This document shows positions 31,114 to 63,843 of a stretch of 63,979 nt of DNA, piece after piece. The position numbers were made by a program, and so were the translations under genes. Below the pieces are notes generated by a model. That model saw nothing but the letters and a program-made list of their open reading frames with translations, made no database searches and was not told the DNA's origin. The stretch is taken from positions 5,739 through 69,717 of the forward strand of contig CAYWNT010000010.1 in the NCBI GenBank assembly GCA_964459725.1, written 5' to 3'. Within the stretch, counting starts at the first letter, position 1; every line of letters starts with the position of its first letter. Source of the stretch: an uncultured Gammaproteobacteria bacterium. GTDB taxonomy: Bacteria; Patescibacteriota; Patescibacteriia; Patescibacteriales; UBA12075.

Positions 31114-33561
31114 TTATACAACAATATTTACAATTTTTGATTTTACAATTATGACTTTTCTAATTTCTTTCCCTTTTGTATATTTCTTTATCTTTTCTCT
31201 TTCTAGAGCTATTTTTTCAAGTTCGTCATCGGCTATTTCAGATGAAACCTCCACCTTGTCACGAACTTTACCGTTTACTTGCACAACCATTTCAACTACA
31301 TCTTCCACTATTAATTCAGGATCATACTCAGGCCAAGATTCCTTGAAGATGCTTTCTTTGTTGCCAATCTTTTCCCAAAGTTCTTCTGATAAGTGTGGAG
31401 CAAAAGGTGCTAGCAGCCTAAGCAGAGCTTCAATTCCTTCTTTCGGAAGTGTGTCGAACTTTGTGAGAAAGTTTATTAGGATCATCATTTGAGAAATTCC
31501 AGTATTAAAGTGGAACTTCTCAATATCCTCCCCTACTTTTTTAATGGTCTTGTGGAGCTGATAGAGCATTCCTTCCGGCAGATCATTATTTTTTGCACTG
31601 CCGTCACACTTTACGTCAGTTAAGTTCTTTTCTGATAAGTTGATAATTTTTTCTAGAAATTTCTTAGCGCCATTAAGACCACTAGTGCTCCAAGCACAAC
31701 TCTGAGCAAAGGGGCCCATAAACATTTCATAGACACGCATAGAATCAGCACCGTGTGATGCTACAACCTCATCTGGATTGATCACATTCCCCCACCGTTT
31801 GCTCATTTTCCTACCATCTTCAGCCATAACTAATCCCACATGCTGCAAGCGAGTAAAAGGCTCATCATAACTTACTACTCCGATGTCGTATAAGAATTTA
31901 TGCCAAAAACGAGCATAGATCAGATGTCTGGTGGCATGTTCCGCCCCACCAACATAAAAATCGATCGGAGACCAGTACTTCTCCTTGTCTTTATCAACTA
32001 GTGCGTTATCGTTGTGCGGGTCAATGTATCTAAGATAATACCAGCAAGAACCAGCCCATTGCGGCATGGTGTTGGTCTCACGCTTAGCTGGACCTCCGCA
32101 TTTCGGACATTTAGTATTTACCCATTCATCAATTGTGGCTAGTGGTGACTCTCCTGTTCCAGTAGGTTCATAACTCTCAACATCAGGTAATTCCACTGGT
32201 AATTCCTCCTCTGGTACTCCTACCACACCACAGCTATCACAGTGAACAACAGGAATAGGTTCACCCCAGTAACGCTGACGACTAAATACCCAGTCTCGAA
32301 GTTTGTAGTTGACAGCCTTACTTCCCTTGCCGTTGCTTTCCAGCCACTCTGTTATTTTCACTCTAGCTTCAGTTGACGACAAGCCATCAAAATCTCCTGA
32401 ATTAACAAGCACACCATCATCGGGATAACAAACTTCAAGATTTTTAACTTTTTCCCACTCTTTATCGTCCTCAGGGCGAATTGAGACAGCAAGAGGGATA
32501 TCAAATTTCTTAGCCATTTCGAAGTCTCTCTCGTCGTGAGCATCAGCAAAGACTGCTCCAGTTCCGTAATTCGCTAAAACAAAATCAGAAATCCATATTT
32601 GTATTTCTTCGCCATTGGCAGGGTTGATTGCGTAAGCACCTGTAAAGACACCTGTTTTTTCTTTTAAAAGTTCTGTTCTTTCTAGATCTGATTTTTTAAT
32701 TGTTTCTTGTAAATATTCTTCAACAGCATCTTTTTGCTCTTTTGTGGTGATTTCTTTGATAAAAGGATGTTCAGGTGCAAATATTAAAAATGTTCCTGAA
32801 AAAAGTGTATCCACTCTTGTGGTGAAAACCTCAATCTTGTGTTCCGAATCTTTGATATCAAATGAAACGTTTGTGCCAACTGATTTACCTATCCAATTTC
32901 TTTGCATTTCTTTGATCGCATCAGGCCAGTCATTCAGCTTGTCCAAATCCTCAAGCATCCTATCAGCATAATCAGTAATCCTAAGCACCCATTGTCTGAG
33001 TGGCTTTTGCTCGATCTCGCTATCACATCTCTCACATCTTCCATTCTCCAGATCTTCATTAGCAAGCACTGTCTTGCATGACGGACACCAGTTCACAGGT
33101 TCATTTGATTCATAAGCTAATCCCTTATTGAACATTTGTAAGAATGTCCACTGTGTCCATTTATAATATTTCGGATCAGTTGTATTCACTTCTCTATCCC
33201 AGTCATATGTAAATCCAAGCTGCTCGAGCTGCTTCTTAAACGTCGCTACATTTTTATCTGTCCCCTCTTTTGGATGAACCTTGTTCTTGATAGCATAATT
33301 TTCTGCAGGCAAACCAAAAGCATCCCACCCCATCGGGTGAAGCACGTTATACCCCTGCATCATCTTCATGCGCGCAGTTATGTCAGTTGCAATATACCCC
33401 TTTGGGTGTCCAACATGAAGCCCAGCTCCACTTGGATAAGGAAACATATCTAAAACATAGTACTTAGGTCTATCCTTGTCCTCTTTGGTTTTATAAATCC
33501 CCTCCTCTTTCCACTTCTCCTGCCATTTTTTCTCGATTTTTTGAAAATTATAACTTTCCAT
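31114..33561 (-). CDS. leuS: Leucyl-tRNA synthetase
   Basis: 815 aa; HVGHP (HIGH), KMSKRWGN (KMSKS), CP1 editing domain. Confidence 0.97.
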   Translation of the reverse strand: MESYNFQKIEKKWQEKWKEEGIYKTKEDKDRPKYYVLDMFPYPSGAGLHVGHPKGYIATDITARMKMMQGYNVLHPMGWDAFGLPAENYAIKNKVHPKEGTDKNVATFKKQLEQLGFTYDWDREVNTTDPKYYKWTQWTFLQMFNKGLAYESNEPVNWCPSCKTVLANEDLENGRCERCDSEIEQKPLRQWVLRITDYADRMLEDLDKLNDWPDAIKEMQRNWIGKSVGTNVSFDIKDSEHKIEVFTTRVDTLFSGTFLIFAPEHPFIKEITTKEQKDAVEEYLQETIKKSDLERTELLKEKTGVFTGAYAINPANGEEIQIWISDFVLANYGTGAVFADAHDERDFEMAKKFDIPLAVSIRPEDDKEWEKVKNLEVCYPDDGVLVNSGDFDGLSSTEARVKITEWLESNGKGSKAVNYKLRDWVFSRQRYWGEPIPVVHCDSCGVVGVPEEELPVELPDVESYEPTGTGESPLATIDEWVNTKCPKCGGPAKRETNTMPQWAGSCWYYLRYIDPHNDNALVDKDKEKYWSPIDFYVGGAEHATRHLIYARFWHKFLYDIGVVSYDEPFTRLQHVGLVMAEDGRKMSKRWGNVINPDEVVASHGADSMRVYEMFMGPFAQSCAWSTSGLNGAKKFLEKIINLSEKNLTDVKCDGSAKNNDLPEGMLYQLHKTIKKVGEDIEKFHFNTGISQMMILINFLTKFDTLPKEGIEALLRLLAPFAPHLSEELWEKIGNKESIFKESWPEYDPELIVEDVVEMVVQVNGKVRDKVEVSSEIADDELEKIALEREKIKKYTKGKEIRKVIIVKSKIVNIVV

Positions 33562-33706
33562 TTTTATGTAATATTTCTAAATTAAAAAATTAGTTCAATA
33601 GAACTACAATAGTAATATTGTATACTATTTCTCAAAAAAAATAAAGGAAAAATAAAAATTCTTCCTCTTTAGTAGTTAAATATCAATAAAATCAATTTTC
33701 TATAAA

Positions 33707-33740
33707 TGTGTACCTTTTAATGTACATTAAAAGGTACACA
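33707..33740. repeat. Perfect 34-nt palindrome
   Basis: TGTGTACCTTTTAATGT|ACATTAAAAGGTACACA. Confidence 0.9.
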
Positions 33741-33788
33741 TAAAAGACAAAAAACATATAATCTACCCTCAAAACTAATTATTTCCAA

Positions 33789-33826
33789 CTGTTGTAGATT
33801 TTGACGACCGTCAATATCTACAACAG
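33789..33826. repeat. Hairpin repeat copy 1
   Basis: CTGTTGTAGAT-TTTGACGACCGTCAAT-ATCTACAACAG followed by a T-run. Confidence 0.85.
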
Positions 33827-33859
33827 TCTTTTTTTGTTGTTTTATAGTGTGAAATCTAA

Positions 33860-34399
33860 TTAATTTAGTTTAAATTTACCTTTAAACAATAAATCATTGC
33901 TAATTTTCTCAACTATAAGTAGTACAACATACTTTTCAATGTTTAAACTTTTCACAAATCTCTGAATTTCATCAAAATCTGCCGTAGGATTTATCCAGAT
34001 ACTGTTTTGTAATAATTTATAACCAGAATCAACTAAGAAGACTCTAAGATGATTTCTTAATCTTCTTTTTTTCTCAGGAATATCAAAAATTACCACTCTC
34101 CATTTATTATCCCAATTATCTCTGTCGTCTTGATCTTTATGTTTGGCTTTCAACTTGAGTGCTCTGAGTATGCCCTTTTTAGTAAATCCTTCTTTTGACA
34201 CATAGCCAAATCTTTCGAGGTGATATATTTGCTGGTATATTCTTCTTCTCTCTTCGGCGTCTTTTATATCCTTCTCAATTGATTTATAATATTCCCAATA
34301 CCAAAACTTTTTTGAAGTGAGAGAAGCACTTGAAAGTCTCTCTAATCCATCAAGAAGGTCTAGCCAAATACTATCTACAGTTTTCATTTTTCTACTCAT
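33860..34399 (-). CDS. PaaX-like regulator (winged-helix N-domain + Cas2-fold domain)
   Basis: 179 aa; WRVVIFDIPEKKRRLRNHLRVFLVDSGYKLLQNSIWINP matches the PaaX/Cas2 beta-alpha-beta pattern. Confidence 0.6.
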   Translation of the reverse strand: MSRKMKTVDSIWLDLLDGLERLSSASLTSKKFWYWEYYKSIEKDIKDAEERRRIYQQIYHLERFGYVSKEGFTKKGILRALKLKAKHKDQDDRDNWDNKWRVVIFDIPEKKRRLRNHLRVFLVDSGYKLLQNSIWINPTADFDEIQRFVKSLNIEKYVVLLIVEKISNDLLFKGKFKLN

Positions 34400-34446
34400 A
34401 CATCACTAAATTAATCCATTTCCCATCCAAAACCACAAGTTTTTAA

Positions 34447-34486
34447 ATTGTTGAAGATTTGTGCGGTCGCACCATTCTACAACAAT
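34447..34486. repeat. Hairpin repeat copy 2
   Basis: ATTGTTGAAGAT-TTGTGCGGTCGCACC-ATTCTACAACAAT followed by a T-run. Confidence 0.85.
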
Positions 34487-34625
34487 TTGTTTTTTGTTGT
34501 TTGAATAATTTTTTATCTTTTTATCTCTTAATAAACTTTCAAAATTGTTTAATTTGGTCTCAGAAGAGTCTTTCTGATATTTTAGCACTACCTACATGAA
34601 GAAAAGTTAAAATTGAGCATCATAA

Positions 34626-34654
34626 AAATATACCGTTTTATTTCCACTATCGCA
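34626..34654 (-). promoter_or_regulatory. Promoter of the PaaX-like gene
   Basis: TTGCGA-N17-TATATT; the -35 box abuts hairpin repeat copy 3; hairpin copy 2 lies in the roughly 215-nt leader. Confidence 0.55.
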
Positions 34655-34692
34655 ATGTTGGGGATTTGTGCGGTCGTCAATATTCACAACAA
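34653..34692. repeat. Hairpin repeat copy 3
   Basis: AATGTTGGGGAT-TTGTGCGGTCGTCAAT-ATTCACAACAAT followed by a T-run. Confidence 0.85.
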
Positions 34693-34800
34693 TAGTTTTT
34701 GGTGATATTGAGGTGTTTGGGCAGGATTGAGGTTTTCGATTTGTTAGGGATTTTTTATTGTGAGAGAGTTTGCTTTAATGGGCTTTTCGTGAACTTTTGA

Positions 34801-34839
34801 ATTGTTGAGGATTTGTGCGGTCGTCTAAATCTACAACAG
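34801..34839. repeat. Hairpin repeat copy 4
   Basis: ATTGTTGAGGAT-TTGTGCGGTCGTCTAA-ATCTACAACAG followed by a T-rich tract. Confidence 0.85.
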
Positions 34840-34992
34840 CTGTTATTTTGTTTAGCCTTGTTTAGGTCGATGTCTATCATCATCTGATTTCTCCATTGCT
34901 AAAATTGATTTTTTTGTAGTTGACGTTATAAAGTTGCTTTTTAATCCCTGGTTTTTGAGCTCTTTTTTTTATTTCATTATTTAAAAAAGTTA

Positions 34993-35610
34993 TCACAAGT
35001 CTATTGTTTTTTTTAAAATTTTTTGAAATAATTTTTTATTATAAATACCTATTTTTTGTAATTTATATTTTGGAAAAATTGTTCTTAGATTTGTTTCAGT
35101 AAAAAATAAATCAACCACACCCTCTGTTTGTCCATAATTTAATTTTAGTTTTTTAACATTGTTATAAATAAGCAAATGAATCAATTCATGAGCTATTGTT
35201 TCGTTAGCACTCTTAATGTCTTTATTGTTTTTAACTCTCAAGCTAACAACATTTGGGAAGTTAAATTGCCCTTCCGGGCCATACAAGGAAATATTGCAGA
35301 CATATTTATATTTTGTTTTTAAGGTGTGATTTTCTAAGACATTAAAAAACTTTTTTTCAATTTTTCGCCAACTGTATTTTATTTGTTCTTTTTTTGATTC
35401 GTAACTATTTTTATTGTAAATTTTGTCTAGTTCCTTGTTTAGTTCTTTGGCGAAATTTTTTTTATTATTTTTATTTTTTTTATAAATTTTATCGTAAAAT
35501 TTAGGTAAGAATATAGGAAAATTATTATCAATAAACCACTGATATTCGTCATAAATATTCAATAATTTTTCTTTTTCTTTATTTTTCGAATATAGAAATT
35601 GTAACTTCAT
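34993..35610 (-). CDS. HExxH zinc-metallopeptidase-like protein, very A+T/Lys/Asn-rich
   Basis: AHELIHL motif; start moved to Met10, which sits 6 nt after a TATAAT box. Confidence 0.5.
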   Translation of the reverse strand: MKLQFLYSKNKEKEKLLNIYDEYQWFIDNNFPIFLPKFYDKIYKKNKNNKKNFAKELNKELDKIYNKNSYESKKEQIKYSWRKIEKKFFNVLENHTLKTKYKYVCNISLYGPEGQFNFPNVVSLRVKNNKDIKSANETIAHELIHLLIYNNVKKLKLNYGQTEGVVDLFFTETNLRTIFPKYKLQKIGIYNKKLFQKILKKTIDL

Positions 35611-35640
35611 ATTTGTATTATAACCTAAAATAAACAAAAT

Positions 35641-35680
35641 GAAAAACGACTAAGGCAGAGTGTGTGTCCGCTTTAGTCGT
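35641..35680 (-). terminator. Terminator of RiPP operon 1
   Basis: ACGACTAA...TTAGTCGT stem + T-run on the minus strand, right after the PqqD-like gene. Confidence 0.7.
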
Positions 35681-35685
35681 TGTCG

Positions 35686-35943
35686 TTAAATAAAGTCCGA
35701 TTCTTTTAATTGTGTTGTAATAGACAAAACTTCTTCCAGTGGATTTTTTACTGAAGGGAAAGTATTTCTGACTAACTCTTCAATTTCTTTTAGATTTTTT
35801 TTTCCTGTCATTTGTTTTACGATAAATACTCCAACTTCATTAAAGGTTAAAACGCCTTTGCCTTGAAAAAATCCAAGGAAACCATCAAGATCTTGTCTGA
35901 TTTTAAATCGACAGTTTATTTTGGGAATAAATTGATTATTCAT
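35686..35943 (-). CDS. PqqD-family peptide-binding (RRE-like) protein
   Basis: 85 aa; PqqD-like pattern (LTFNEVGVFIVKQMTGKKNLKEIEELV); ATGA overlap with rSAM stop. Confidence 0.65.
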   Translation of the reverse strand: MNNQFIPKINCRFKIRQDLDGFLGFFQGKGVLTFNEVGVFIVKQMTGKKNLKEIEELVRNTFPSVKNPLEEVLSITTQLKESDFI

Positions 35944-36950
35944 AATCGCCCCTCATTCTTTTGTTGAATAAATTCATCAGGAGCGTACATTCCACCATCA
36001 TAACATGAGGCTGAACATCCCCCGCCACAGAAATTATCGCATTCTCGACATTTCAAGGGTAGCCAGCCTAGAGATCGAAAGTGAGATAATTGCTTAGTCC
36101 ATATTTTGGTTAGCGGCGTTTCTAAAATATTACCGTAGCTTCCTTTGGCAATAGAACACGAACGAACATTACCCATGTGATCTATGTGTCCAAAACCAGT
36201 GCCCTGCCAACAACCAATTACGTAATCATGGTATTTAGCGGGGAGTAAGCACAAGGGAAAGGCGTCTCCAAAACTGGCTAAAATACCAAGTTCGTTTCGA
36301 ATTTTTTTTAGCTGAGGAAAAACTGACAAGTAGTCATGTAATGATAATTTAACTTGTTCCCAGTCAGATTTAGCTCGACCATAGGGAGTTAGGCGTCCCA
36401 CATTTATCTCATCTATTTCTATCCCTTTTTCTTTTAACCACCGACAAACATCAAAAACTGATTTATAATTATTCCTGGTTAATGTGTAAAGGATAGAGAT
36501 GCCGATACCGTTTTCTATGCAAGCTTGTATGCCACTTACTGCGTCCTCAAATGATCCAGTAATCTTCGTTATGTCTTCGTGGATCTCTTTTGTGCCGTGC
36601 AATGAAATAGCGCCACCAACAATGCGGTGATCTAATAATTTTTTCGCTGTGTTAGTATTAATGTGTGTGCCATTTGATACAAATGATAAGAAAAAATCCT
36701 GTTTATCAGCATATTCTAATACTTTTTGCCAATGTGGGTAAACAAAAAATTCTCCTCCAAACATCCTAACTTCAAAAACTTCTGCCTCGGCAAGCTTGTC
36801 TAAGATTGATGTAACCTGTTCAAATGAAGGATGACTTAATTTTTCGCATTCCATCTCTGCATTGAAGCAAAACTCGCAAGTCAAATCGCAAACAGGGCTT
36901 ACCTCAAAATTTACCGAAATAGGCGATTTCAGACTCACCAACTCGTTCAT
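35940..36950 (-). CDS. Radical SAM/SPASM-domain peptide maturase
   Basis: CDLTCEFC (CX3CX2C); C-terminal CRECDNFCGGGCSASC Cys cluster; start set at Met36 (36950), preceded by AAGGAGAG SD, so it no longer overlaps the precursor ORF. Confidence 0.85.
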   Translation of the reverse strand: MNELVSLKSPISVNFEVSPVCDLTCEFCFNAEMECEKLSHPSFEQVTSILDKLAEAEVFEVRMFGGEFFVYPHWQKVLEYADKQDFFLSFVSNGTHINTNTAKKLLDHRIVGGAISLHGTKEIHEDITKITGSFEDAVSGIQACIENGIGISILYTLTRNNYKSVFDVCRWLKEKGIEIDEINVGRLTPYGRAKSDWEQVKLSLHDYLSVFPQLKKIRNELGILASFGDAFPLCLLPAKYHDYVIGCWQGTGFGHIDHMGNVRSCSIAKGSYGNILETPLTKIWTKQLSHFRSLGWLPLKCRECDNFCGGGCSASCYDGGMYAPDEFIQQKNEGRL

Positions 36951-36972
36951 CTTCTCTCTCCTTGTGTGGTGA

Positions 36973-37008
36973 AGCTGGAGGAGTGAAACTTTTACCGCTC
37001 CTCCAGCT
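36973..37008 (-). promoter_or_regulatory. Precursor-maturase intergenic hairpin (operon 1)
   Basis: Perfect 11-bp stem AGCTGGAGGAG/CTCCTCCAGCT, 14-nt loop, no U-run; between the precursor stop (37024) and rSAM start (36950). Confidence 0.7.
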
Positions 37009-37023
37009 TGGTTTAAATGCTTA

Positions 37024-37149
37024 TTAGCAACACTTACAGGTGCATTGACCAGCACACTTCATTGCAGCCATCCGTATTGGAGTAAGCTGCGGTTGAACGC
37101 CTTTTAAAGTGCTAAACTTTGCCATTACGGCCTTGCTCTGAGATTCCAT
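37024..37149 (-). CDS. Candidate RiPP precursor peptide (41 aa, Cys-rich C-terminus), not in ORF track
   Basis: MESQSKAVMAKFSTLKGVQPQLTPIRMAAMKCAGQCTCKCC; AAGGAGGTGA SD upstream; own promoter; directly upstream of rSAM/SPASM gene. Confidence 0.7.
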   Translation of the reverse strand: MESQSKAVMAKFSTLKGVQPQLTPIRMAAMKCAGQCTCKCC

Positions 37150-37216
37150 AATTAGAATTCACCTCCTTTTAATCTTTTAATGTACAATTTCAACTACCGC
37201 TGTGATAGTCATAAGT

Positions 37217-37246
37217 ATCTTATCATTGCTTTATCTGTTTTGTCAA
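37217..37246 (-). promoter_or_regulatory. Promoter of the RiPP operon 1 precursor
   Basis: TTGACA-N18-TAAGAT. Confidence 0.55.
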
Positions 37247-37250
37247 AAAC

Positions 37251-37284
37251 TAAAAAAAGGAGAATGTGCTGTAGACATTCTCCT
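37251..37284 (-). terminator. Terminator of the pilin-like gene
   Basis: AGGAGAATGT...ACATTCTCCT + T7 on the minus strand. Confidence 0.8.
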
Positions 37285-37321
37285 ATGTGTAGTAATTTTG
37301 TTAATAACTTGGGTTGATTGT

Positions 37322-37795
37322 TTATCCTGCGCCGGTTATGGAGTCTAGGATGAATTTTGTTATGGCGTAGGCGGAAAATACTATTACGAGGCCGATGGCG
37401 GCCCATACTAGTGTGTTTTTACCCTTTGTAACCATTTCACTGTTTCCTGCTGATAACATCCACATAAAACCACCGTAAATAAACATTGCCAAGGCTAATG
37501 AGCCAACAATTCCCAGAGCGCCGTTAATGACTTTACCGATAAAAGTATTTATATCGGGTGTTCCAGAAAGGGGATTTTTTAGAGTGACTGTTTCCGTACT
37601 GTCACCACTTTTAGGCTGCTTCCAATCGCAAAGATTATTTTCCTTACAATTTGTTTCACCTAAGACGCGACATGTGTTATAATCATCCGTACTATCAAAA
37701 TTAATAGCAATACACTTTGCATGTGTGTTATTTGCTAAAAAAAATAAGAAAAAAATAAAAATTAGTGCAAAAGTTGTGATAAATTTTAATTTCAT
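37322..37795 (-). CDS. TrbC/VirB2-type (T4SS pilin-like) membrane protein
   Basis: 157 aa; signal peptide, Cys-containing ectodomain, two C-terminal TM helices (GGFMWMLSAGN...VWAAIGLVIV). Confidence 0.6.
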   Translation of the reverse strand: MKLKFITTFALIFIFFLFFLANNTHAKCIAINFDSTDDYNTCRVLGETNCKENNLCDWKQPKSGDSTETVTLKNPLSGTPDINTFIGKVINGALGIVGSLALAMFIYGGFMWMLSAGNSEMVTKGKNTLVWAAIGLVIVFSAYAITKFILDSITGAG

Positions 37796-37823
37796 AGTTT
37801 TATTATAACATGCTTTATAAAAA

Positions 37824-37860
37824 TAATAAAGGGGAGAAACAATTATGTCTCTCCCCTTTT
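37824..37860 (-). terminator. Terminator of the TPR gene
   Basis: GGGGAGA...TCTCCCC + T-rich tract on the minus strand. Confidence 0.7.
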
Positions 37861-37889
37861 GTGGGTTCTTTTTTGAACACCTACCTTTT

Positions 37890-38174
37890 TTATCTAGCCA
37901 TTGCCAAAGTGGCGCTATATGGCTTAATACCTATTTCAACAATTACATTCTTTTTAGCACGGATTTTAAACTCCCTTAGATTGTTAGGAATTTTATCCCC
38001 AGCCCATACTCTAATAGGCTTTTCATTTCTTGGCAATAATTCATATTGGTCTTCGTTAACGCCGCTATAAAAATCATAATGAACTTCTTCGGTGAATCTG
38101 ATATAGTGATCAGTGTCAGTTCCTTCTCGCAAGCGGAAACCTGGATCGTCGCCTGGGCCGTAGACTTTGTAGTC
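37890..38174 (-). repeat. Near-identical 285-nt coding module, copy 1
   Basis: Aligned by eye to 39207..39491: 5 mismatches, all synonymous; the flanking terminator region is also similar. Confidence 0.9.
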
Positions 38175-38858
38175 AGGCGGAAGATTGCCATACTCAAGAG
38201 CTAAACTTCTCCACTCATTGTATTCTTTCTCGGTTTCAGCCGCTTCCATCTTGGCCTTGTAATTTGCGAAGATTTTCGCGTTGTTCCGACTAGAATACTT
38301 AGCGGCGACTTTGTATTCACCTCGAGCGTAGTACAGGTCGCTGATTTTGTCTCCATAAGAGCTGTTGAGTTCAACTAGTAAATCAAAATTCTCTTGTGCT
38401 TGCTTAGCTTTTCCGTTGCCGAGCAGAGCTTGGGTTCTTGCAAAAACATCTCTCTCTACTTGAGATACAAGGCTTTTGTTCCAGCCTACGATGATACCAT
38501 GCAAGATTTTGATTTTGCTAGTGTTGCTCTGAGCAACTACAGTGTTGCACTCTTGTTTGAAGCTTTCAGCAATTTTGGTCTTGTACTTGCCCTTGTAGTG
38601 ATTATTCGCACTTTTGAACTGCTTGCTTGCTTTTTCATACTGACCAAGTTTGATATACGCTTCGCCAAACATGAAATACGCTTTATGATTGCTAGGGTTG
38701 TTAGCAATTACTTTTTTCAGTGAGCTGATTGCGTCATTATAATTTTCGGCAATCATGTGATCTTCAGCCTTGCTCATTTCCCCCCAGCCGTAGCAGGTTA
38801 AAGGGAGAGCAAAAGCCATGGCCATTACCAATACTACACATACACTTAGCTTTTTCAT
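37890..38858 (-). CDS. Secreted TPR-repeat protein carrying the shared 94-aa C-terminal module
   Basis: Start set at MKKLSVCVVL (GAGGAGAG SD); signal peptide; TPR-like repeats; C-terminus identical to that of 39207..40325. Confidence 0.7.
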   Translation of the reverse strand: MKKLSVCVVLVMAMAFALPLTCYGWGEMSKAEDHMIAENYNDAISSLKKVIANNPSNHKAYFMFGEAYIKLGQYEKASKQFKSANNHYKGKYKTKIAESFKQECNTVVAQSNTSKIKILHGIIVGWNKSLVSQVERDVFARTQALLGNGKAKQAQENFDLLVELNSSYGDKISDLYYARGEYKVAAKYSSRNNAKIFANYKAKMEAAETEKEYNEWRSLALEYGNLPPDYKVYGPGDDPGFRLREGTDTDHYIRFTEEVHYDFYSGVNEDQYELLPRNEKPIRVWAGDKIPNNLREFKIRAKKNVIVEIGIKPYSATLAMAR

Positions 38859-39011
38859 GGTTCTCTCCTCGTTTTTTGCTTCGCAAACCCACACTAAAAA
38901 TGTGGGGCATACGAATAATTAAACAAACAAATTGGTTAAATAGGTAGTTATTCTTAATGGATATTGCTATCCATTATATTTTTAATGTGCTGATTAATTC
39001 TAATTACTTTT

Positions 39012-39039
39012 ATTATATAAGAAATATATTAAAAGTCAA
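39012..39039 (-). promoter_or_regulatory. Proximal promoter of the TPR gene
   Basis: TTGACT-N16-TATAAT. Confidence 0.6.
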
Positions 39040-39065
39040 TGAAAATTACAAGTGTTATTATCTAT

Positions 39066-39094
39066 ATAGTAGCATATTTTGTAAATAAAGTCAA
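39066..39094 (-). promoter_or_regulatory. Distal promoter of the TPR gene
   Basis: TTGACT-N17-TACTAT. Confidence 0.55.
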
Positions 39095-39206
39095 GAGCTT
39101 AAAGTAAATTTTTATGAAAGATCTATCTTTTGTTTAAAATTAGCAAAATAAAAAAGGGAAGAAACTAAGTCTCTCCCCTTTTGTAGGTTTTTTGAACACC
39201 TCCTCT

Positions 39207-39491
39207 TTATCTCGCCATTGCCAGTGTTGCGCTATATGGCTTAATACCTATTTCAACAATTACATTCTTTTTAGCACGGATTTTAAACTCCCTTAGATTG
39301 TTAGGAATTTTATCCCCAGCCCATACTCTAATAGGCTTTTCATTTCTTGGCAATAATTCATATTGGTCTTCGTTAACGCCGCTATAAAAATCATAATGAA
39401 CTTCTTCGGTGAATCTGATATAGTGATCAGTGTCAGTTCCTTCTCGCAAGCGGAATCCTGGATCGTCGCCTGGGCCGTAGACTTTGTAGTC
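39207..39491 (-). repeat. Near-identical 285-nt coding module, copy 2
   Basis: See copy 1; constant offset of 1317 nt. Confidence 0.9.
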
Positions 39492-40325
39492 TTTGGCTTG
39501 GGCTGTTTTTGTTTTGTTTGGCAAAACTGCTTCATCCAGTCCCTTGTCAAGGAATGAAAAAAGTTTACTGTTTTTTTTCATGTATTCCATGACTGCCTCT
39601 ACCCTTTCAGGGTCTACCGGCTTCATCGCTTTGCCAAATTTTCCAGAGAAGCCAGGATGCGAGCTTACATCAATAATAACTCCTTCCTTATTTTCAAGGT
39701 ACCAATATTTTGGCTTACCGTAAGTTTCCTCTGCTTCAGCGGTAGATATTTCATCAATTTTATTACCTGCATGATCCGTGTCTTTGCTAAAAGCTTGGAA
39801 CGGCTGAGTCGCGAGAGATCCGCAGATTACCAATGAACCAACAAGAGTAATAATCAGATACGATTTCCAGATCTTTACTGCCGGACCAAACACAAAGCCT
39901 GCACCAAAATACAATACAGCTACTACAAAAACCAGTAATGATGTTTGCAATAAGTATAATAGTCTTTCATCGAGAAAATCCAATTTAGCATGCAATAAAT
40001 TGTGGAACTTTAAATAGTACCACATTAAGAACCAAATTTGAATTGCAGCTAAACCAATAAACTGAAACGCTTCTCCGATTAAGGATCTCTTAAATATTGC
40101 GATTAAGGTGATTGCAAGAATAATTGAGGGGATACAAACCCACAAAACATAATCATTTTCAATAGTTGCCAGACTCAATAAGTAACCAATTGCATTGTAA
40201 AAGGTTTTCAATAAGGCTGCTGTTATTCGAAGTCCAAGAACTGAAACAATTAAGGCTACACTGAATGCAAACTTCTTTTTTCGAGGTGACCAGGATGCAA
40301 CTTCTCTCATAAAATTATTAATCAT
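39207..40325 (-). CDS. Polytopic membrane protein carrying the shared 94-aa C-terminal module
   Basis: About 6 TM helices, then a soluble region; start set at the ATG at 40325 (GGAGG 8 nt upstream; overlaps upstream stop). Confidence 0.7.
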   Translation of the reverse strand: MINNFMREVASWSPRKKKFAFSVALIVSVLGLRITAALLKTFYNAIGYLLSLATIENDYVLWVCIPSIILAITLIAIFKRSLIGEAFQFIGLAAIQIWFLMWYYLKFHNLLHAKLDFLDERLLYLLQTSLLVFVVAVLYFGAGFVFGPAVKIWKSYLIITLVGSLVICGSLATQPFQAFSKDTDHAGNKIDEISTAEAEETYGKPKYWYLENKEGVIIDVSSHPGFSGKFGKAMKPVDPERVEAVMEYMKKNSKLFSFLDKGLDEAVLPNKTKTAQAKDYKVYGPGDDPGFRLREGTDTDHYIRFTEEVHYDFYSGVNEDQYELLPRNEKPIRVWAGDKIPNNLREFKIRAKKNVIVEIGIKPYSATLAMAR

Positions 40326-41268
40326 TCTTTTTTCCTCCAAGACCTCTTAATGCGTCTGATACGGTCTGAGCCACCATTACCCATGTTGGATTAGCCCCTG
40401 TTGCAGTTATCATCTTCGCCATTGCGGCCGCTTCATCATCAGCCGCGTCTTTTTCAAGCTCAGCTGCCTTCTTTCTGTCAGTAGCAGCCTTTACTGCTGG
40501 GGTAGGTTCAATGTTTTCAACGTTAATAACTGCTTTTAGTCCATAATCCTTTCCGCTGTCATCCCTTAGAAGCTCATTTGCTTTAGCGGTTACCAGGTCG
40601 CTGTAAGTTACTTTATCCTCAGCAGACCAGCTAATTACCACATTAGAATCTTTATCAACTGCCCTGTTAAGAGCAACTTTTACTCTCTGGGTTACCAGAT
40701 CCTTTACTTTTTCTGAGTCATTTTTTGTATTAATGTGATATTTTATGGCTGAGCCTTCTTCTTCCTCAATAAAATATGTTACCCTAGCATCTATATCAAC
40801 ATCATTTCCGTCAGTACAATTAACTTTAAAGGGCTCAACATCAAGTTGAACTGGGGTCATGTCGACCACGCCCTCGTCGGAATGCCAAATCTTTGGAATG
40901 TAAAATCTCCAACCCTCTTTCTTTTCTTCGTATCCATCACCATTAACGGGATCAGAAAACCAAACATTTCTAAGTATCCATCGATGATTTTTTGGCACTT
41001 GATAAATTATTGATTTTTCTGCGTCCTCTTCTGATGTTACTTCTTTGGCCTTTTTGAATGCTGCCGCACCTAACGCAACCGCAACTATCACAATGACTAC
41101 AACTGGTAAAAATACGGTTAACCATTTTAAGTCATCTACAACGTCTCCATTGAAAATACCTATCATTAGATAGAATGAAATTAAAACACTAAATACAATG
41201 AAGATATTGTTTAACAAAAATTGAATAATATTATTCGACCATCTCTTTATAGCTCCATCTGCGCTCAT
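40318..41268 (-). CDS. SPFH/band-7-like membrane protein
   Basis: N-terminal TM helices, central beta-rich region, Ala/Glu-rich C-terminal helix typical of SPFH proteins; start set at the ATG at 41268 (GGAGGAAG SD); ORF-track start is TTG. Confidence 0.55.
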   Translation of the reverse strand: MSADGAIKRWSNNIIQFLLNNIFIVFSVLISFYLMIGIFNGDVVDDLKWLTVFLPVVVIVIVAVALGAAAFKKAKEVTSEEDAEKSIIYQVPKNHRWILRNVWFSDPVNGDGYEEKKEGWRFYIPKIWHSDEGVVDMTPVQLDVEPFKVNCTDGNDVDIDARVTYFIEEEEGSAIKYHINTKNDSEKVKDLVTQRVKVALNRAVDKDSNVVISWSAEDKVTYSDLVTAKANELLRDDSGKDYGLKAVINVENIEPTPAVKAATDRKKAAELEKDAADDEAAAMAKMITATGANPTWVMVAQTVSDALRGLGGKKND

Positions 41269-41480
41269 AACACTTCCTCCGATATAGATTAAAAGTTTGT
41301 ATTCTGTTTTCAAAGATCTGTAATTAGACCCGTATATGTGAAATTTCTTAGAGTTAAGAAATTTAACTAAAATTATATATATTCTAAGCCGATTATTTAT
41401 CCCGTCGGATGACTGGGATCGGCAATTTTATAGTTAAGCCTAGTCGGCAATTTATAATATACTCAAAGTCTAATTATCTT

Positions 41481-41509
41481 AATATAGCATATTTTAAGAT
41501 AAATGTCAA
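41481..41509 (-). promoter_or_regulatory. Promoter of the SPFH-like operon
   Basis: TTGACA-N17-TATATT. Confidence 0.7.
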
Positions 41510-41531
41510 GGATATTGTGTTGTTTTGACTA

Positions 41532-41578
41532 ATTTTAGATAAAAAAATACTGACCCATGGTTCAGGTCAGTATTTTTT
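41532..41578 (-). terminator. tyrS terminator (copy 1 of the 42-nt repeat)
   Basis: TACTGACC-N9-GGTCAGTA flanked by A7/T7; 41532..41573 is identical to 44361..44402. Confidence 0.8.
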
Positions 41579-41683
41579 TATTTAAACTTTCAATAAAGTA
41601 ATTATTACACCTTAGCACAATTGGAAAGCGGAAGTCTTGTGGAGTATTAACATTTTTCTTAAAATAGGCTCACCTTACCAGCT

Positions 41684-42895
41684 TTATTCGAAGACTACTT
41701 TTACAAATCCAAATTTTCCAATTTTTAAGATTGATTGATTGTCTTCTTTTGTTAAAATTCTTCTCCAATCTATTTCTTTTTCTTTGTTTATGCTTACTCC
41801 ACCCTGCTCAATCTTTCTTTTGGCCTCGCTGTTGCTCTGCGCCAACCCAGCTAAAACGATAAATTCTATCAATTTGATTTGTTTTTGACTAACAACAACA
41901 TCCTTAACTTCTTCGGGTGTTTCTTTGTTTGAAATCGTATTCACAAAATAATCTTGTGCTTTTTTGGCCTCCTCTTGTCCGTGATAAATTTTTACAATCT
42001 CATAAGCTAATCTTATTTTTATATCACGAGGCTCATTGTTTTTAGCAATTTCATCTATCTCACTCAAAGAAAGCAGCGTTGTGTCAATAAAAAGCTGATT
42101 CATGTTTTCATCGGGTTGAGACATAATTGAGCCAAACATTTTATTTGCATTCCAATCAAGAAAAACTCCGGTTCCGAGAGATTTTGACATCATCTTTTCT
42201 CCGGTTTTGGGATTTTCAAGCAAGGTTGTTATAACAACAAATTTTTCCTTGTTTTTATATCTTTTTAGCAAGGTTCTTCCTGCTAAAGCATTGAATTTTT
42301 GATCACTTCCACACATTTCAATATCCACATCTAATGCCACACTGTCATATCCTTGCATAAGTGGATAAAAAAATTCATGAAGATGAATCGGTTTTTCGTC
42401 CTTTAATCTCTTTTCAAACATATCCCTTTCCAACATTCTTTGTACTGTAAAGTTTGATGCAATATTAACTATTTCTTCAAAGGTAAGCTTAGACAGCCAA
42501 TCGTGATTATAGACAATACGAACTGGATTTTTTTTGTCTTCAAAATCTATAATTGGCTTAACTTGTTTTAGCCATGTCTTAGTGTTGGCAATGACTTGTT
42601 TTCTTGTAAGCTGCACTCTTGCTGCGTCTTTATCTGTAGGGTCACCTATTCTTGATGTAAAATCACCAATCAAAAAAATAATTTCGTGTCCAAGTTTTCT
42701 AAATTTTTCAAGAATAATATAATTTGTTGCATGTCCAAGATGAAGGGATGTCCCTGTGGCATCGGTGCCAATATAGATTTTTAATTTTTCACCAGAAAGT
42801 AACTTTTCTTTTAATTTCTCCTTGGACGGCAATACCTCCTTAACTGATCTAGATAATAATTCATCTATTTCATTTTCCAAAGTAACTTCGTTCAT
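41684..42895 (-). CDS. tyrS: Tyrosyl-tRNA synthetase
   Basis: 403 aa; SLHLGH (HIGH), KMSKS-like KMMSKSLG, C-terminal S4 domain. Confidence 0.95.
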   Translation of the reverse strand: MNEVTLENEIDELLSRSVKEVLPSKEKLKEKLLSGEKLKIYIGTDATGTSLHLGHATNYIILEKFRKLGHEIIFLIGDFTSRIGDPTDKDAARVQLTRKQVIANTKTWLKQVKPIIDFEDKKNPVRIVYNHDWLSKLTFEEIVNIASNFTVQRMLERDMFEKRLKDEKPIHLHEFFYPLMQGYDSVALDVDIEMCGSDQKFNALAGRTLLKRYKNKEKFVVITTLLENPKTGEKMMSKSLGTGVFLDWNANKMFGSIMSQPDENMNQLFIDTTLLSLSEIDEIAKNNEPRDIKIRLAYEIVKIYHGQEEAKKAQDYFVNTISNKETPEEVKDVVVSQKQIKLIEFIVLAGLAQSNSEAKRKIEQGGVSINKEKEIDWRRILTKEDNQSILKIGKFGFVKVVFE

Positions 42896-42963
42896 ATAAT
42901 TAATTTAATATTAATTTTTAAATAATAAAGAAGATTTTTACAAGTTAGCGCTTTTTATTTCTA

Positions 42964-42996
42964 AATAAAAAGCCCAATATACTACATATACTGGGC
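42964..42996 (-). terminator. Terminator of RiPP operon 2
   Basis: GCCCAGUAUA...UAUAUUGGGC + U5 on the minus strand. Confidence 0.7.
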
Positions 42997-43011
42997 GTAA
43001 AACCTGTTAAT

Positions 43012-44076
43012 TTATCCGATTGAACAGGTGGTGTTTGGATGATTAGAGTCTACTAGAATACGATAATAAGCGTCACTAACAATTCTCTTGAATCTACAAT
43101 AATCTAGTAATTTCTCGGACCTGCTAAGCCTTTCATCATTTTGCCAATACCACTTTGTATTTTTACAAAAATTTATCCAAGGACAACTATCTTGTTTACA
43201 CAAAAGCATAGGATAGCTCTTGGTTTTAACATAGGTTTTTATCTCAGCAATTTTTTCTGATATATTATGATTATTTATTTTATGAGAATTTTCCAAATCA
43301 AGTTCGAATAAGTATGGGTCAATACCTCCATAAGCATACTCTGGAATAATACTCGAAAATAAATTTAAATGAACTTTCGAAAAAAAATCTTCAACTACTC
43401 GATTTAGATTTTCTTCAAGCTGCTTCCATTCTTCTTCGGATGGAGTTTTATAAGCCCCATAATTAACTTCGCATATTAGTGGGATTTTTCCCATTTCTTC
43501 ATAAAACCAGCGGCAAATTTCATGAAGCTTGGCAAAGCAGTTATTTGGAACCACACACACTCCGGGAATGACCGGTAAACTTTTGGAATTATACTTATTT
43601 ATTCTCTTAGCTAGCTTAATAGGATCAACCGATCCCCTATCTGGGTTGACTGGATTTTCTATTGACAAGAAAATATGGCTTATTGCACTATCTCTTGCCT
43701 TTAAGATCCAATCTTGATCCAAAATTTTCCCTGCTGACAATATATATGGAGAAGTCCCCACAACATCAAAAGCTTTATTGGCAAGGTCAAACAATCTATC
43801 ACCAAGAATCATAGGCTCTCCACCAGAAAATCGATACGATGTGGGTGATTGGGTGGATAAATTCCAGGCTCTAATAAAATTCAAATAAGCAATAAATTGT
43901 TCATCTGAAATATCATATGCGAACTTATTCCGAGAACGAGATTTAAAGTAATGACAATATGTACAGTTAAGATTGCATCGACCAGTTACTCCAATACTAA
44001 TTGAAAAAATCTTTTCACGGGCTTTCATGCTATCCACGTTACCTATGTTGCGCACCAGGATATTGCCAGACAACAT
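43012..44076 (-). CDS. Radical SAM enzyme (candidate peptide maturase)
   Basis: GRCNLNCTYCHY (CX3CX2C); C-terminal CKQDSCPWINFC Cys cluster; start ambiguous (44076 lies inside a hairpin; alternative ATG at 44028). Confidence 0.8.
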   Translation of the reverse strand: MLSGNILVRNIGNVDSMKAREKIFSISIGVTGRCNLNCTYCHYFKSRSRNKFAYDISDEQFIAYLNFIRAWNLSTQSPTSYRFSGGEPMILGDRLFDLANKAFDVVGTSPYILSAGKILDQDWILKARDSAISHIFLSIENPVNPDRGSVDPIKLAKRINKYNSKSLPVIPGVCVVPNNCFAKLHEICRWFYEEMGKIPLICEVNYGAYKTPSEEEWKQLEENLNRVVEDFFSKVHLNLFSSIIPEYAYGGIDPYLFELDLENSHKINNHNISEKIAEIKTYVKTKSYPMLLCKQDSCPWINFCKNTKWYWQNDERLSRSEKLLDYCRFKRIVSDAYYRILVDSNHPNTTCSIG

Positions 44077-44084
44077 CCTGGTGC
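44052..44084 (-). promoter_or_regulatory. Precursor-maturase intergenic hairpin (operon 2)
   Basis: Perfect 10-bp stem GCACCAGGAT/ATCCTGGTGC, 13-nt loop, no U-run; includes the first in-frame ATG (44076) of the rSAM ORF. Confidence 0.7.
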
Positions 44085-44105
44085 AATTTTAATGAACTCC
44101 CCAAG

Positions 44106-44240: not shown

Positions 44241-44295
44241 AACACCTCCTTATTGAAAGATTTTTAATGAAATGCAAACTATTTTGCATATTTAA

Positions 44296-63832: not shown

Positions 63833-63843
63833 CCTTAAATTAT

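Follow-up and report, generated by a model that had tools for sequence, protein, structure and literature searches.

Two genes for otherwise unrelated envelope proteins end in almost the same DNA in an uncultured marine bacterium, and the question is how this identity arose, how it has been kept, and what the shared segment may do. The genes lie in a stretch of 63,979 nucleotides, here called the window. One encodes a secreted TPR protein and the other a polytopic membrane protein. The explanation that we favor, with a probability of about 0.7, is that the shared segment is a two-copy cassette for a predicted beta-sandwich domain at a pilin locus, that gene conversion has kept the two copies alike, and that the copies would have a binding role in common.

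The repeat at the ends of the two genes

The last 285 nt of the two genes (37890-38174 and 39207-39491, both genes on the minus strand) were realigned, and the ungapped match with five synonymous mismatches reported in the initial annotation was reproduced with all its counts correct. The differences lie at 37896, 37907, 37908, 37911, and 38139, and the two proteins share an identical C-terminal 94 residues (DYKVYGPG...TLAMAR), referred to here as the module; in the TPR protein these are residues 229-322. Since four of the five differences sit within the final 8 codons, a perfect core of 227 nt is left. The two direct repeats are spaced 1317 nt apart, and a gapped BLASTN alignment of the copies (94.9% identity over 355 aligned columns, E = 1.5e-156) excluded a chance likeness. 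The features of the locus are listed in Table 1.

The alignment also fixed the borders of the repeat, as the initial annotation had proposed. The 5′ border is abrupt and falls at the D of DYK, and upstream of it the proteins are indeed unrelated (BLASTP of the N-terminal parts, E = 46). The likeness seen earlier downstream of the stop codons runs for about 70 nt at about 80% identity, with indels and a terminator hairpin in each copy.

Table 1. Features of the two-copy locus in the window, in the order of transcription
Feature	Position	Strand	Remarks
Promoter-like site 5′ of the SPFH and membrane+module genes	41481..41509	-	TTGACA-17-TATATT, TG before it; consensus scan only, 11/12
SPFH/Band 7 gene	40318..41268	-	PF01145, E = 2.6e-12
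Polytopic membrane+module gene	39207..40310	-	367 aa; alternative starts 40325, 40340
Module copy B (last 94 codons of the membrane protein gene)	39210..39491	-	In the 285-nt repeat; matches module HMM
Stop codon of membrane+module gene	39207-39209	-	
3′ UTR copy B, duplicated	39145..39206	-	Intrinsic terminator, hairpin 39152-39182
Promoter-like site 5′ of the TPR+module gene	39012..39039	-	TTGACT-16-TATAAT; consensus scan, 11/12 matches
Secreted TPR+module gene	37890..38858	-	322 aa from ATG (MKKLSV...); other gene calls start 38825 or 38894
Module copy A (last 94 codons of the TPR protein gene)	37893..38174	-	In the 285-nt repeat; module HMM E = 1e-40
Stop codon of TPR+module gene	37890-37892	-	
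3′ UTR copy A, duplicated	37820..37889	-	Intrinsic terminator, hairpin 37828-37859
VirB2-like T4SS pilin gene, directly 3′ of the TPR+module gene	37322..37795	-	PF18895, E = 2.8e-13

The module, its carriers, and their locus

We analyzed the two carriers of the module. The TPR protein matched TPR_19 (E = 2.3e-9), with TPR_2 and TPR_17 exceeding their cut-offs, and the AlphaFold model contained 11 helices with pLDDT of 72-87. A Sec signal peptide was found at its N terminus and also across the TPR family, and the signal peptide and TPR (all-alpha) repeats originally read in this protein both stand. Full-length homologues of the TPR+module protein (P0003-P0007 and P0009) are 29-42% identical to it. 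The module forms the native C terminus of this rare Sec-secreted TPR family (about 312-328 aa), and predicted polytopic membrane proteins from adjacent genes carry it as well.

For the membrane protein, a crude hydropathy scan combined with the positive-inside rule gave 5 TM helices, rather than the about six first suggested, with the N terminus in and the C terminus out. The C terminus of P0008 was also placed out by the positive-inside rule, with 3 TM helices by eye and 2 scored by the scan. As far as the crude scan goes, both copies of the module are predicted to lie outside the membrane, which agrees with the initial proposal that a secreted scaffold and a membrane-anchored one both display this domain. 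The membrane protein had no Pfam or NCBIfam match, and its N-terminal 273 aa had no homologue in the databases searched. The preceding SPFH gene is separated from the membrane+module gene by a 7-nt gap or overlaps it by 8-23 nt, depending on the start chosen. A membrane+module gene likewise follows an SPFH gene (PF01145, E = 4.2e-6) in contig L006, with a 1-nt overlap. The membrane scaffolds of the window, L006, and another contig, L002, had no detectable likeness to one another.

SPFH (stomatin/flotillin) and NfeD genes form operon pairs (PMC2636767), and the C-terminal domain of PH1510 has an OB fold (PMC4208085). The locus resembles such pairs in that, in the window and in L006, an SPFH gene is coupled to the gene of a membrane protein whose TM helices are N-terminal and whose C-terminal domain is small, soluble, and all-beta. 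However, the membrane+module protein had no PF01957 match, the module is predicted to be a seven-strand sandwich rather than a five-strand OB barrel, and NfeD structures were absent among the 50 best-ranked Foldseek PDB matches of the module. Also unlike the case of NfeD, prediction puts the C-terminal domain on the outer side of the membrane and the SPFH domain on the inner, and a secreted TPR protein bears this C-terminal domain too. Membership of the membrane+module protein in the NfeD family was rejected on the HMM results and the fold of the predicted model, and NfeD is kept here as an analogy.

The module is confidently predicted to fold as a beta-sandwich of about 88-94 residues and represents an undescribed, rare domain, predicted to be extracytoplasmic. 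AlphaFold, supplied with a 12-sequence alignment, returned seven strands with pLDDT of 86.9 and pTM of 0.78; this confident model needed the 12-row alignment, as pLDDT from the single sequence was about 30. Foldseek searches of PDB and BFVD gave no module match at E <= 1e-3. The nearest matches were small jelly-roll, cupin, or CUB-like binding domains with TM of 0.43-0.59 (below significance), and the top cupin match, 2q30, reached TMq of 0.58 and rmsd of 2.9 over 77 columns, yet with E = 0.33. The conserved metal-binding His/Glu motifs of cupins are not present in the module family, whose sole recurring His (TDH.I[RH]) becomes K or Y in several members and whose invariant residues are I28, R52, P66, F72, and A76. 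With no significant Foldseek match, assignments of the module as cupin, CUB, or PliG-like were rejected.

The initial annotation did not recognize the domain, and none of the HMM or structure libraries tried knows it. The module had no Pfam, NCBIfam, PHROG, PADLOC, or PDB match; Pfam matched none of the 19 family members and, at E <= 1, offered no family for the membrane protein or the module. PHROGs and PADLOC contained nothing for the module, the membrane protein, the SPFH protein, the pilin, or the neighboring proteins of about 165 aa. Sequence searches gave 13 module matches among 1.84 billion (1.84e9) representative proteins, which, together with the library results, speaks against the alternative raised earlier that this is a known common domain. 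In a word-indexed search of 5.8e9 proteins, the module alone had no match, profile A3 matched P0012 and P0014 only, and the full membrane protein matched the window's own two proteins only. The GTDB species-representative genomes and the IMG/VR viral contigs, scanned with peptide patterns, contained no module relatives, and the housekeeping proteins were singletons throughout.

The survey of other N-terminal scaffolds that had been recommended turned up five kinds of carrier: TPR proteins, polytopic membrane proteins, a TM+TPR fusion, proteins with a disordered N terminus, and the module by itself. In every protein with other domains, the module is the extreme C terminus. Between lineages it is much better conserved than the scaffolds or the SPFH proteins, none of which BLASTP could detect, and this suggested that the module is under strong constraint.

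The order in the window is SPFH/Band 7, membrane+module, terminator, promoter, TPR+module, terminator, and VirB2-like T4SS pilin. The module beside a pilin recurs in three other, deeply diverged contigs, L002, L004, and L006, in which PF18895 pilins follow the module genes; the C-terminal halves of the orthologous pilins (window, L002, L004, and L006) are 52-67% identical. The distant contig L002 repeats the order of membrane+module, TPR+module, and VirB2-like pilin, and the membrane/TPR module pair is known in two genomes only, those of the window and L002. In L006 the pilin gene follows a membrane+module gene, an order that a deletion through recombination of the two direct repeats would produce. 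In Patescibacteria, PF18895 pilins belong to the T4SS (PMC12102498). The window resembles the loci described there in its PF18895 pilin, which has a Sec signal, is variable toward the N terminus, and has two TM helices toward the C terminus, and in belonging to a small, low-G+C genome with a T4SS coupling protein, here a TrwB/TraG-like protein about 20 kb off. The pilin family and the style of the genome suggest that the organism would belong to Patescibacteria. The window differs in having one pilin and no array, virB4 is not adjacent, and no virB4 was identified. PMC12102498 makes no mention of TPR, SPFH, or module proteins. A conserved partner of about 165 aa in the tandem-array loci was considered and dropped, since a relationship was apparent only between the proteins of L008 and L011.

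The TPR+module gene was the most transcribed gene within 33000-46000. Its RNA depth was about 17; the membrane and SPFH genes reached 3-5, and the neighboring housekeeping genes about 0. RNA contigs span 37888-38919, and none was found over 38920-39737. The promoter-like site upstream of the TPR+module gene suggested that this gene forms a transcription unit apart from the SPFH and membrane genes. The transcript level in situ suggests that the TPR+module protein ranks among the major products of the cell.

Mosaic identity and its alternatives

Although 79% of the sites are nonsynonymous, none of the five differences between the copies is (P = 3.8e-4), which indicates purifying selection on the module. 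The synonymous divergence in the window is uneven, with 1 change per 52.3 sites over codons 1-86 and 4 per 6.0 over codons 87-94 (P = 5e-4). Per site this amounts to 0.02 for the core and 0.67 for the final 8 codons; the 3′ UTR has diverged by about 20%, with indels in addition. The longest identical run, 227 nt, is itself improbable (P = 0.0016). In the module pair of L002, the core is 91% identical over 224 nt, with 10 synonymous codon changes, versus 40% over the first 43 nt (Fisher P = 6e-13), and there is no likeness beyond the stop. The modules are 100% identical in amino acids within the window and 84% within L002, versus 36-40% between the two genomes.

Paralogous modules within a genome are therefore closer than their orthologues, the loci being orthologous by synteny and pilins, and in both the window and L002 a homogenized tract with borders lies beside older, diverged homologous sequence, as concerted evolution would have it. 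The uneven divergence in both genomes favors gene conversion over one simple recent duplication. Concerted evolution by gene conversion together with purifying selection is well supported, with conversion inferred from the mosaic identity in two genomes. Of the two origins offered initially, a recent duplication or gene conversion under purifying selection, the synonymous differences and the mosaic divergence support the general proposal and make conversion the preferred arm. An old duplication would have placed the module and terminator on both genes, later conversion between the direct repeats within the locus would have repeatedly homogenized the module core, and purifying selection would meanwhile have purged amino acid changes. 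In tandem TPR+module arrays (L005, L008, and L011), the modules are only 21-56% identical and not homogenized, which indicates that identity is not a general requirement of the family. Beyond the initial annotation, the module was found to be native to a conserved TPR family, the locus to be conserved beside a pilin, and concerted evolution to occur in a second lineage.

A comparable case is that of Helicobacter pylori, in which the 3′ segments (segment 3) of babA/babB and homA/homB are in concerted evolution by intragenomic conversion (PMC2795765, citing Pride & Blaser 2002 and Santoyo & Romero 2005). In both systems the C-terminal segment of two surface protein genes is closer within a genome than between genomes, and a mosaic identity with defined borders marks a segment under structural or functional constraint. 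The H. pylori genes, however, are full-length paralogues with a variable middle, whereas the genes studied here are unrelated 5′ of the module (E = 46), form adjacent direct repeats 1.3 kb apart, and have a duplicated unit with its own terminator; conversion in our case is deduced from sequence.

It could be proposed that one recent partial duplication, or domain capture, gave the membrane gene the 3′ part of the TPR gene together with the terminator, with no conversion afterward. The repeat does take in the 3′ UTR and terminator, as a copied gene end would, and the TPR+module proteins, a conserved full-length family, would be a natural donor. The lack of likeness among the three membrane scaffolds (window, L002, and L006), that of the window being an orphan, fits independent captures, and such captures of the module by the three scaffolds may have occurred; the dissimilarity carries no weight, however, since even the SPFH proteins of these lineages are unalignable. 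What makes a single capture unlikely is that the repeat has diverged unevenly (0.02 in the core, about 0.2 in the UTR, and 0.67 over the final 8 codons; P = 5e-4) and that L002 has a mosaic of the same kind, in which the diverged start of the membrane protein module fits the family consensus, as expected if the module is old and its core younger.

The T9SS CTD, SLH, CWB2, WxL, and choline-binding domains are C-terminal sorting or anchoring modules common to surface proteins. The module resembles them as a beta-rich C-terminal unit of about 90 aa on extracytoplasmic proteins with unrelated N-terminal parts, and it might be a sorting, secretion, or anchoring signal read by a dedicated machinery or an envelope polymer. 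Its position at the extreme C terminus wherever other domains exist, its sandwich of T9SS CTD size, and its presence on several different scaffolds would fit such a signal. On the other hand, no member matched the sorting or wall-binding models of Pfam or NCBIfam (TIGR04183/PF18962, Por_Secre_tail, had no module match at E <= 1 in either library), and the tail does not have the hydrophobic-plus-basic ending of the sortase/exosortase type. No cognate machinery was identified, and none of the T9SS kind appeared among the Pfam-annotated genes of the window. One carrier, moreover, is a polytopic membrane protein that needs no secretion signal, and a family with 13 representatives in 1.84e9 proteins and none in GTDB representative genomes is unlike a general sorting system. 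A sorting signal is thus quite unlikely, while a role in binding the envelope agrees with the explanation that we favor and does not compete with it.

In principle, the nucleotide identity could be maintained at the level of DNA or RNA, for instance by a recombination site, an antisense gene, or an embedded regulatory RNA, given the perfect 227-nt core and the mechanical ORFs that both copies contain in other frames and on the complementary strand. This is very improbable, because none of the five differences changes a residue in the module frame, the L002 core tolerates its 10 synonymous codon changes, protein rather than DNA is conserved across genomes, and the only Rfam match in the window is one tRNA.

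Finally, a misassembly (a collapsed or chimeric repeat, or a strain mixture) had been named by the initial annotation as the result that would undo its claim, and it deserved attention in a short-read metagenome assembly in which an identical 227-nt core exceeds the assembler k-mers. Reads and a second assembly spoke otherwise. The second assembly, L015, was made from a different sample; over 12,951 bp it agrees with the window at every position and reproduces the five differences between the copies. All four unique/repeat junctions were rebuilt from unitigs of two DNA runs, with depth of 13.6-16.1 in the shared core versus 6.8-9.4 in the flanks (about 2x), and a DNA unitig over 39229-39491 (copy B) likewise had about 2x the flanking depth. 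A 470-nt metatranscriptome contig (37888-38357) traverses the entire TPR copy with zero mismatches, copy-specific SNPs included. A slightly diverged strain, in which both copies might have changed together, was sought; run X5 and the second assembly proved to be the same strain and all runs were identical, leaving one strain only. As L002, from an unrelated metagenome, has the same architecture, an assembly artefact is effectively refuted.

A proposed shared binding role and the significance of the locus

The most likely function is that the module would be the conserved working part of these proteins, a binding domain presenting one specificity from two scaffolds. The anchored scaffold would be the membrane+module protein, coupled to an SPFH microdomain protein, and the second an abundant secreted TPR protein carrying the same module. 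The shared ligand could be the neighboring pilin or pilus, or a component of the envelope or host surface. Alternatively, the two module copies may bind each other and so tether the TPR protein to the anchor; the TPR RNA, which far exceeds that of the membrane gene, is a poor fit to a simple 1:1 tether.

A more specific and rather unlikely form of this reading makes the module the recognition element of a pilin-associated surface apparatus in an episymbiotic, Patescibacteria-like cell, in which the anchor and the TPR scaffold would need identical specificity, matched by gene conversion. Identity might then be required because both proteins zip together through the module, or because both track the pilin ectodomain or a host-surface ligand; the ectodomain of the adjacent VirB2-like pilin, at about residues 27-85 of its 157 aa, would be fast-evolving and Cys-rich. 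If this were true, conversion would be a built-in device by which a two-component surface system co-evolves as one while the module diverges fast between lineages.

The wider interest lies in a domain family that is new and very rare, has a confidently predicted fold, and is without known relatives. The family is tied to VirB2-like pilin loci, regarded as central to the way in which Patescibacteria live in dependence on a host, and the non-pilin surface components of these loci are essentially uncharacterized. The locus also offers a clean bacterial case of concerted evolution of a single domain in two otherwise unrelated genes, independently in two lineages, and this marks the module as the functionally critical part.

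The repeat and its two copies

Alignment of the two module-coding segments exactly reproduced the gapless 285-nt repeat with five synonymous mismatches described in the initial annotation. The segments (37890-38174 and 39207-39491), both the 3' ends of minus-strand genes, differ at 37896, 37907, 37908, 37911 and 38139, and the affected codons are 11, 87, 88, 89 and 92 of the 94 in the module. The shared C-terminal sequence of both proteins is DYKVYGPGDDPGFRLREGTDTDHYIRF...IGIKPYSATLAMAR. The BLASTN E value of 1.5e-156 rules out chance resemblance of the copies. The upstream border of the repeat is abrupt and coincides with the module's first codon; the N-terminal 228 aa of the TPR protein and 273 aa of the membrane protein are unrelated (BLASTP E = 46), as had been claimed. 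The similarity noted beyond the stop codons was also confirmed: it continues for about 70 nt, reaching 37820 and 39145 in a gapped alignment, at about 80% identity with three small indels, and includes an intrinsic-terminator hairpin in each copy.

The repeat represents two real copies and not an assembly artefact. The window lies within a 318-kb marine metagenome scaffold. An independently assembled 155-kb scaffold from a different sample is identical across the locus over 12,951 bp and carries both copies with the same five copy-specific differences. The four unique/repeat junctions were each rebuilt by de Bruijn contigs in two DNA runs, and these contigs extend 30 nt beyond the last distinguishing base, matching the expectation for k = 31. 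The depth of the shared-core contig (13.6-16.1, against 6.8-9.4 for the flanks; two DNA runs) indicates about two copies. A single 470-nt metatranscriptome contig (37888-38357) spans the whole TPR copy with its copy-specific bases and reaches unique TPR sequence. The same strain was found at low depth in a fifth run, from another study.

The module and its carrier proteins

The 322-aa protein has a typical Sec signal peptide with a cleavage region (...CYG|WGE) matching the AxA|WGE-type sites of its homologues, TPR matches (TPR_19, E = 2.3e-9) and repeats that are entirely helical up to about residue 224 (AlphaFold pLDDT 72-87). The signal peptide and TPR repeats of the initial annotation therefore stand, whereas its "about six" transmembrane helices in the 367-aa protein become about five hydrophobic segments by a crude scan, not a dedicated predictor. 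Since the latter is basic at its N-terminus (RKKK) and in every second short loop (KRS, PAVKIWK), the positive-inside rule predicts that its last 200 residues, with the module among them, lie outside the membrane. The same reasoning, applied by eye, puts the C-termini of the membrane+module proteins P0008 and P0010 outside, less securely because it counts segments that the scan did not score. The module is thus predicted, with good support from these sequence features, to be extracytoplasmic on both scaffolds. At position 39843 of the membrane-protein gene, one X4 metatranscriptome contig (depth 3) has G where the DNA has A, which could be a strain variant, an error or an edit.

The domain had not been recognised initially, and HMM and structure-prediction searches likewise gave no known family. 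Searches with the window module against Pfam, NCBIfam, PHROG and PADLOC gave no match (E <= 1 or 0.01), none of the 19 module-family members matched Pfam, and PDB chain sequences gave no match to the module sequence or to its family profile. When 1.84 billion representative proteins were scanned exhaustively with HMMER, 13 hits emerged, including the window's own two proteins and a doubtful repeat protein (P0011). No relatives turned up when 185,579 GTDB species genomes and IMG/VR were each scanned twice by pattern; a JGI metagenome scan found three loci. The AlphaFold2 model from a 12-sequence alignment is confident (pLDDT 86.9, pTM 0.78) and has seven beta strands plus a short, low-confidence, window-specific C-terminal helix. 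Foldseek gave no PDB or BFVD match at E <= 1e-3; the closest shapes, none significant, were small jelly-roll binding domains (cupins, TM 0.55-0.59; CUB and PliG, about 0.4). No metal-binding motif is conserved across the family. I28, R52, P66, F72 and A76 are invariant, and the most conserved motif, R.G..[IV][KR].W.G.K.P.N..[DE]FK[IV].A, spans the long strand 5-6 connection into strand 6 and is a possible binding site. The module is a new domain, very rare, and its predicted beta-sandwich fold is confident.

The initial annotation had suggested a survey of other N-terminal scaffolds, and the module was found on TPR, membrane, fused TM+TPR and disordered forms, and alone. Most members are full-length homologues of the window TPR protein (signal peptide, TPR and module; 311-345 aa, 29-42% identity over the whole length), which indicates that the module is native to the TPR family. 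Three membrane proteins carry it C-terminally: the window protein, P0008 and P0010. P0013 joins both kinds of scaffold in one protein, a Rosetta-stone-type link that hints that membrane-anchor and TPR scaffolds belong to one function. P0014 has a disordered N-terminus followed by the module, and P0012 is a stand-alone module encoded just 5' of another TPR-family gene.

Transcription of the TPR+module gene in situ is clear, and its level seems to exceed that of its neighbours. A single metatranscriptome was informative: here the gene was covered by contigs from 38919 to 37888 at a depth of about 17, the SPFH and membrane genes gave short RNA contigs at a depth of 3-5, and neighbouring tRNA synthetases and other housekeeping genes gave none, contig depth being a poor gauge of expression. 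Part of the TPR+module gene also appeared in a second RNA run.

The pilin locus and its surroundings

In the window, the module genes lie between an SPFH/Band 7 gene and a VirB2-like pilin gene; the membrane+module gene starts a few nucleotides from the SPFH stop. In three other, unrelated metagenome contigs, a module gene likewise immediately precedes an orthologous pilin gene. The order in L002 is membrane+module, TPR+module, pilin, as in the window; in L006 it is SPFH, membrane+module, pilin, with a 1-nt SPFH/membrane overlap; and in L004 a 5'-truncated module gene, TPR-family-like in its remaining upstream part, precedes the pilin gene. Adjacency of a module gene to a VirB2-like pilin gene was thus shown in four lineages, and coupling of SPFH to the membrane+module gene in two. 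Judged from their sequences, these lineages are deeply diverged. The pilins share 52-67% identity in the conserved C-terminal half and 22-32% in the variable Cys-rich N-terminal part, BLASTP cannot align the window SPFH protein with that of L006 although each matches PF01145, and no similarity is detectable between the window and L002 in either the TM or the TPR scaffold. Amid such scaffolds, the module (36-42% identical between lineages) and the pilin C-terminal half are the best-conserved parts of the locus.

Features of the module locus, its surroundings and other module-bearing contigs
Feature	Contig	Coordinates	Strand	Order or remark
Promoter-like site	window	41509-41481	minus	1
SPFH/Band 7 gene	window	41268-40318	minus	2
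Membrane+module gene	window	39207-40310	minus	3
Intrinsic-terminator hairpin, membrane-protein copy	window	39152-39182	minus	4; post-stop
Second promoter-like site	window	39039-39012	minus	5
TPR+module gene	window	37890-38858	minus	6
Intrinsic-terminator hairpin, TPR copy	window	37828-37859	minus	7; post-stop
VirB2-like pilin gene	window	37795-37322	minus	8; PF18895, E = 2.8e-13
Terminator	window			9
Radical SAM/SPASM protein	window	35940-37055	minus	
PqqD-like protein	window	35686-35943	minus	
214-aa protein	window	34993-35637	minus	HELIH zinc-peptidase-like motif
Uncharacterised 516-aa protein	window	56830-58380	minus	flanks coupling-protein homologue
T4SS coupling-protein homologue	window	58472-60319	minus	TrwB_AAD_bind/TraG-D_C; ~20 kb from pilin locus
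DUF8128 protein	window	60333-61886	minus	flanks coupling-protein homologue
Tandem array	L005	1-8309		
Tandem array	L007	3659-5974		
Tandem array	L008	9343-12460		
Tandem array	L011	8088-11457		
P0013, 620 aa	L009	936-2798		two N-terminal TM helices, long TPR/SNAP-like region, module
P0012, stand-alone module, 91-94 aa	L018	205-489		no signal peptide; terminator next
TPR-family gene start	L018	771-1076		3' of P0012; lipoprotein-like signal (...VFSCGSEG)

Tandem arrays of two to five diverged TPR+module paralogues occur in L005, L007, L008 and L011/L012, whose G+C is higher or whose features suggest a larger genome; L005, L007, L008 and L011 are probably non-Patescibacteria. No pilin gene was found near these arrays. 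Three of the four (L007, L008 and L011) lie close to integrases or transposases and to genes of defence type (DruA, SduA_C, caspase-like C14 peptidase), and the secreted proteins of about 166 aa beside the L008 and L011 arrays appear to be homologues.

Immediately 3' of the pilin gene, on the minus strand (34993-37055), three genes look like a RiPP-maturase trio (radical SAM/SPASM, PqqD-like and HELIH proteins); no precursor peptide was identified. An 85-nt intergenic repeat (41496-41579 and 44325-44409, 87% identical) looks like a reused terminator/promoter block; its first copy contains the SPFH-gene promoter-like site and a hairpin with 25-nt arms (41531-41589) downstream of the TyrRS gene. 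At the window edge, tRNA-Lys(UUU) (63760-63834) precedes a 38-nt direct repeat (63840-63877 and 63942-63979, 97% identical), which could be attachment-site-like or part of a tRNA array. Perfect or near-perfect intergenic palindromes of 33-40 nt (33706-33741, 50890-50922 and 62205-62244) are probably bidirectional terminators.

The window is tentatively assigned to Patescibacteria, judging by its pilin family, a G+C content of 36.7%, the T4SS coupling-protein homologue and the lack of close relatives. Its GyrB, ClpB, LeuRS and TyrRS are all singletons at 90% clustering among 15 billion proteins, indicating an organism without close sequenced relatives; the same strain recurs in several samples, marine or seawater, of two studies.

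Probable concerted evolution and a proposed role

Within a genome, the two modules are 100% (window) or 84% (L002) identical in amino acids, against 36-40% between the two genomes. The initial annotation had offered recent duplication or gene conversion, and the mosaic divergence favours conversion over simple duplication. Of 58.3 synonymous sites in the window module, codons 1-86 have one change in 52.3 and codons 87-94 four in 6.0 (P = 5e-4); the longest identical run is 227 nt (P = 0.0016, synonymous-site-weighted placement), and the UTR beside the module differs at about 20% of positions and contains indels. Such uneven divergence does not fit one duplication event of uniform age; it is explained by an older duplication of module and terminator plus a younger conversion tract across the core. 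In the L002 pair, the first 43 nt of the module are 40% identical and the next 224 nt 91% (Fisher P = 6e-13), both diverged starts match the family consensus D[FY].[VL]Y..G, and no similarity continues past the stop. The tract borders therefore differ between the window and L002, as expected for independent conversion events. These patterns give good support to recurrent gene conversion between the adjacent direct repeats.

Purifying selection, also proposed initially, was shown to act on the module on top of conversion: none of the five window differences is nonsynonymous (P = 3.8e-4). The L002 core has 10 synonymous and 5 nonsynonymous codon differences. Since modules of the tandem arrays are not homogenised (21-56% identity), homogenisation is specific either to membrane/TPR pairs or to pairs still similar enough for recombination.

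H. pylori babA/babB and homA/homB have been described to evolve in the same way in their "segment 3" (PMC2795765); unlike those pairs, the window partners have only the module in common. The initial interpretation holds and the finding is real; the most apt summary is a new domain family, carried by two unrelated scaffolds at a conserved pilin locus, whose copies evolve in concert.

SPFH-NfeD operons likewise place a membrane protein with a small beta domain after SPFH (PMC2636767, PMC4208085). NfeD membership of the membrane+module protein was rejected, as it matched neither the NfeD HMM nor the OB-fold and its predicted membrane side differs, and the resemblance is one of analogy only. The T9SS CTD and other C-terminal sorting or anchoring modules resemble the module in position and size; none of these models matches it. 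Patescibacteria have recently been described to possess a T4SS with VirB2-like pilins (PMC12102498), and the pilin context of the window agrees with it; that report makes no mention of the window pilin's neighbours. On present evidence, the locus is not a new kind of system.

The module may be a binding domain. The membrane anchor, possibly SPFH-organised, and the abundant secreted TPR scaffold would then offer one same specificity, directed at a common ligand (the pilin or its pilus, a component of the envelope or one of the host surface) or at the other copy in homotypic pairing; the excess of TPR transcript counts against a strict 1:1 tether. The finding bears on the surface biology of uncultured episymbionts, and the function of the module is now testable.
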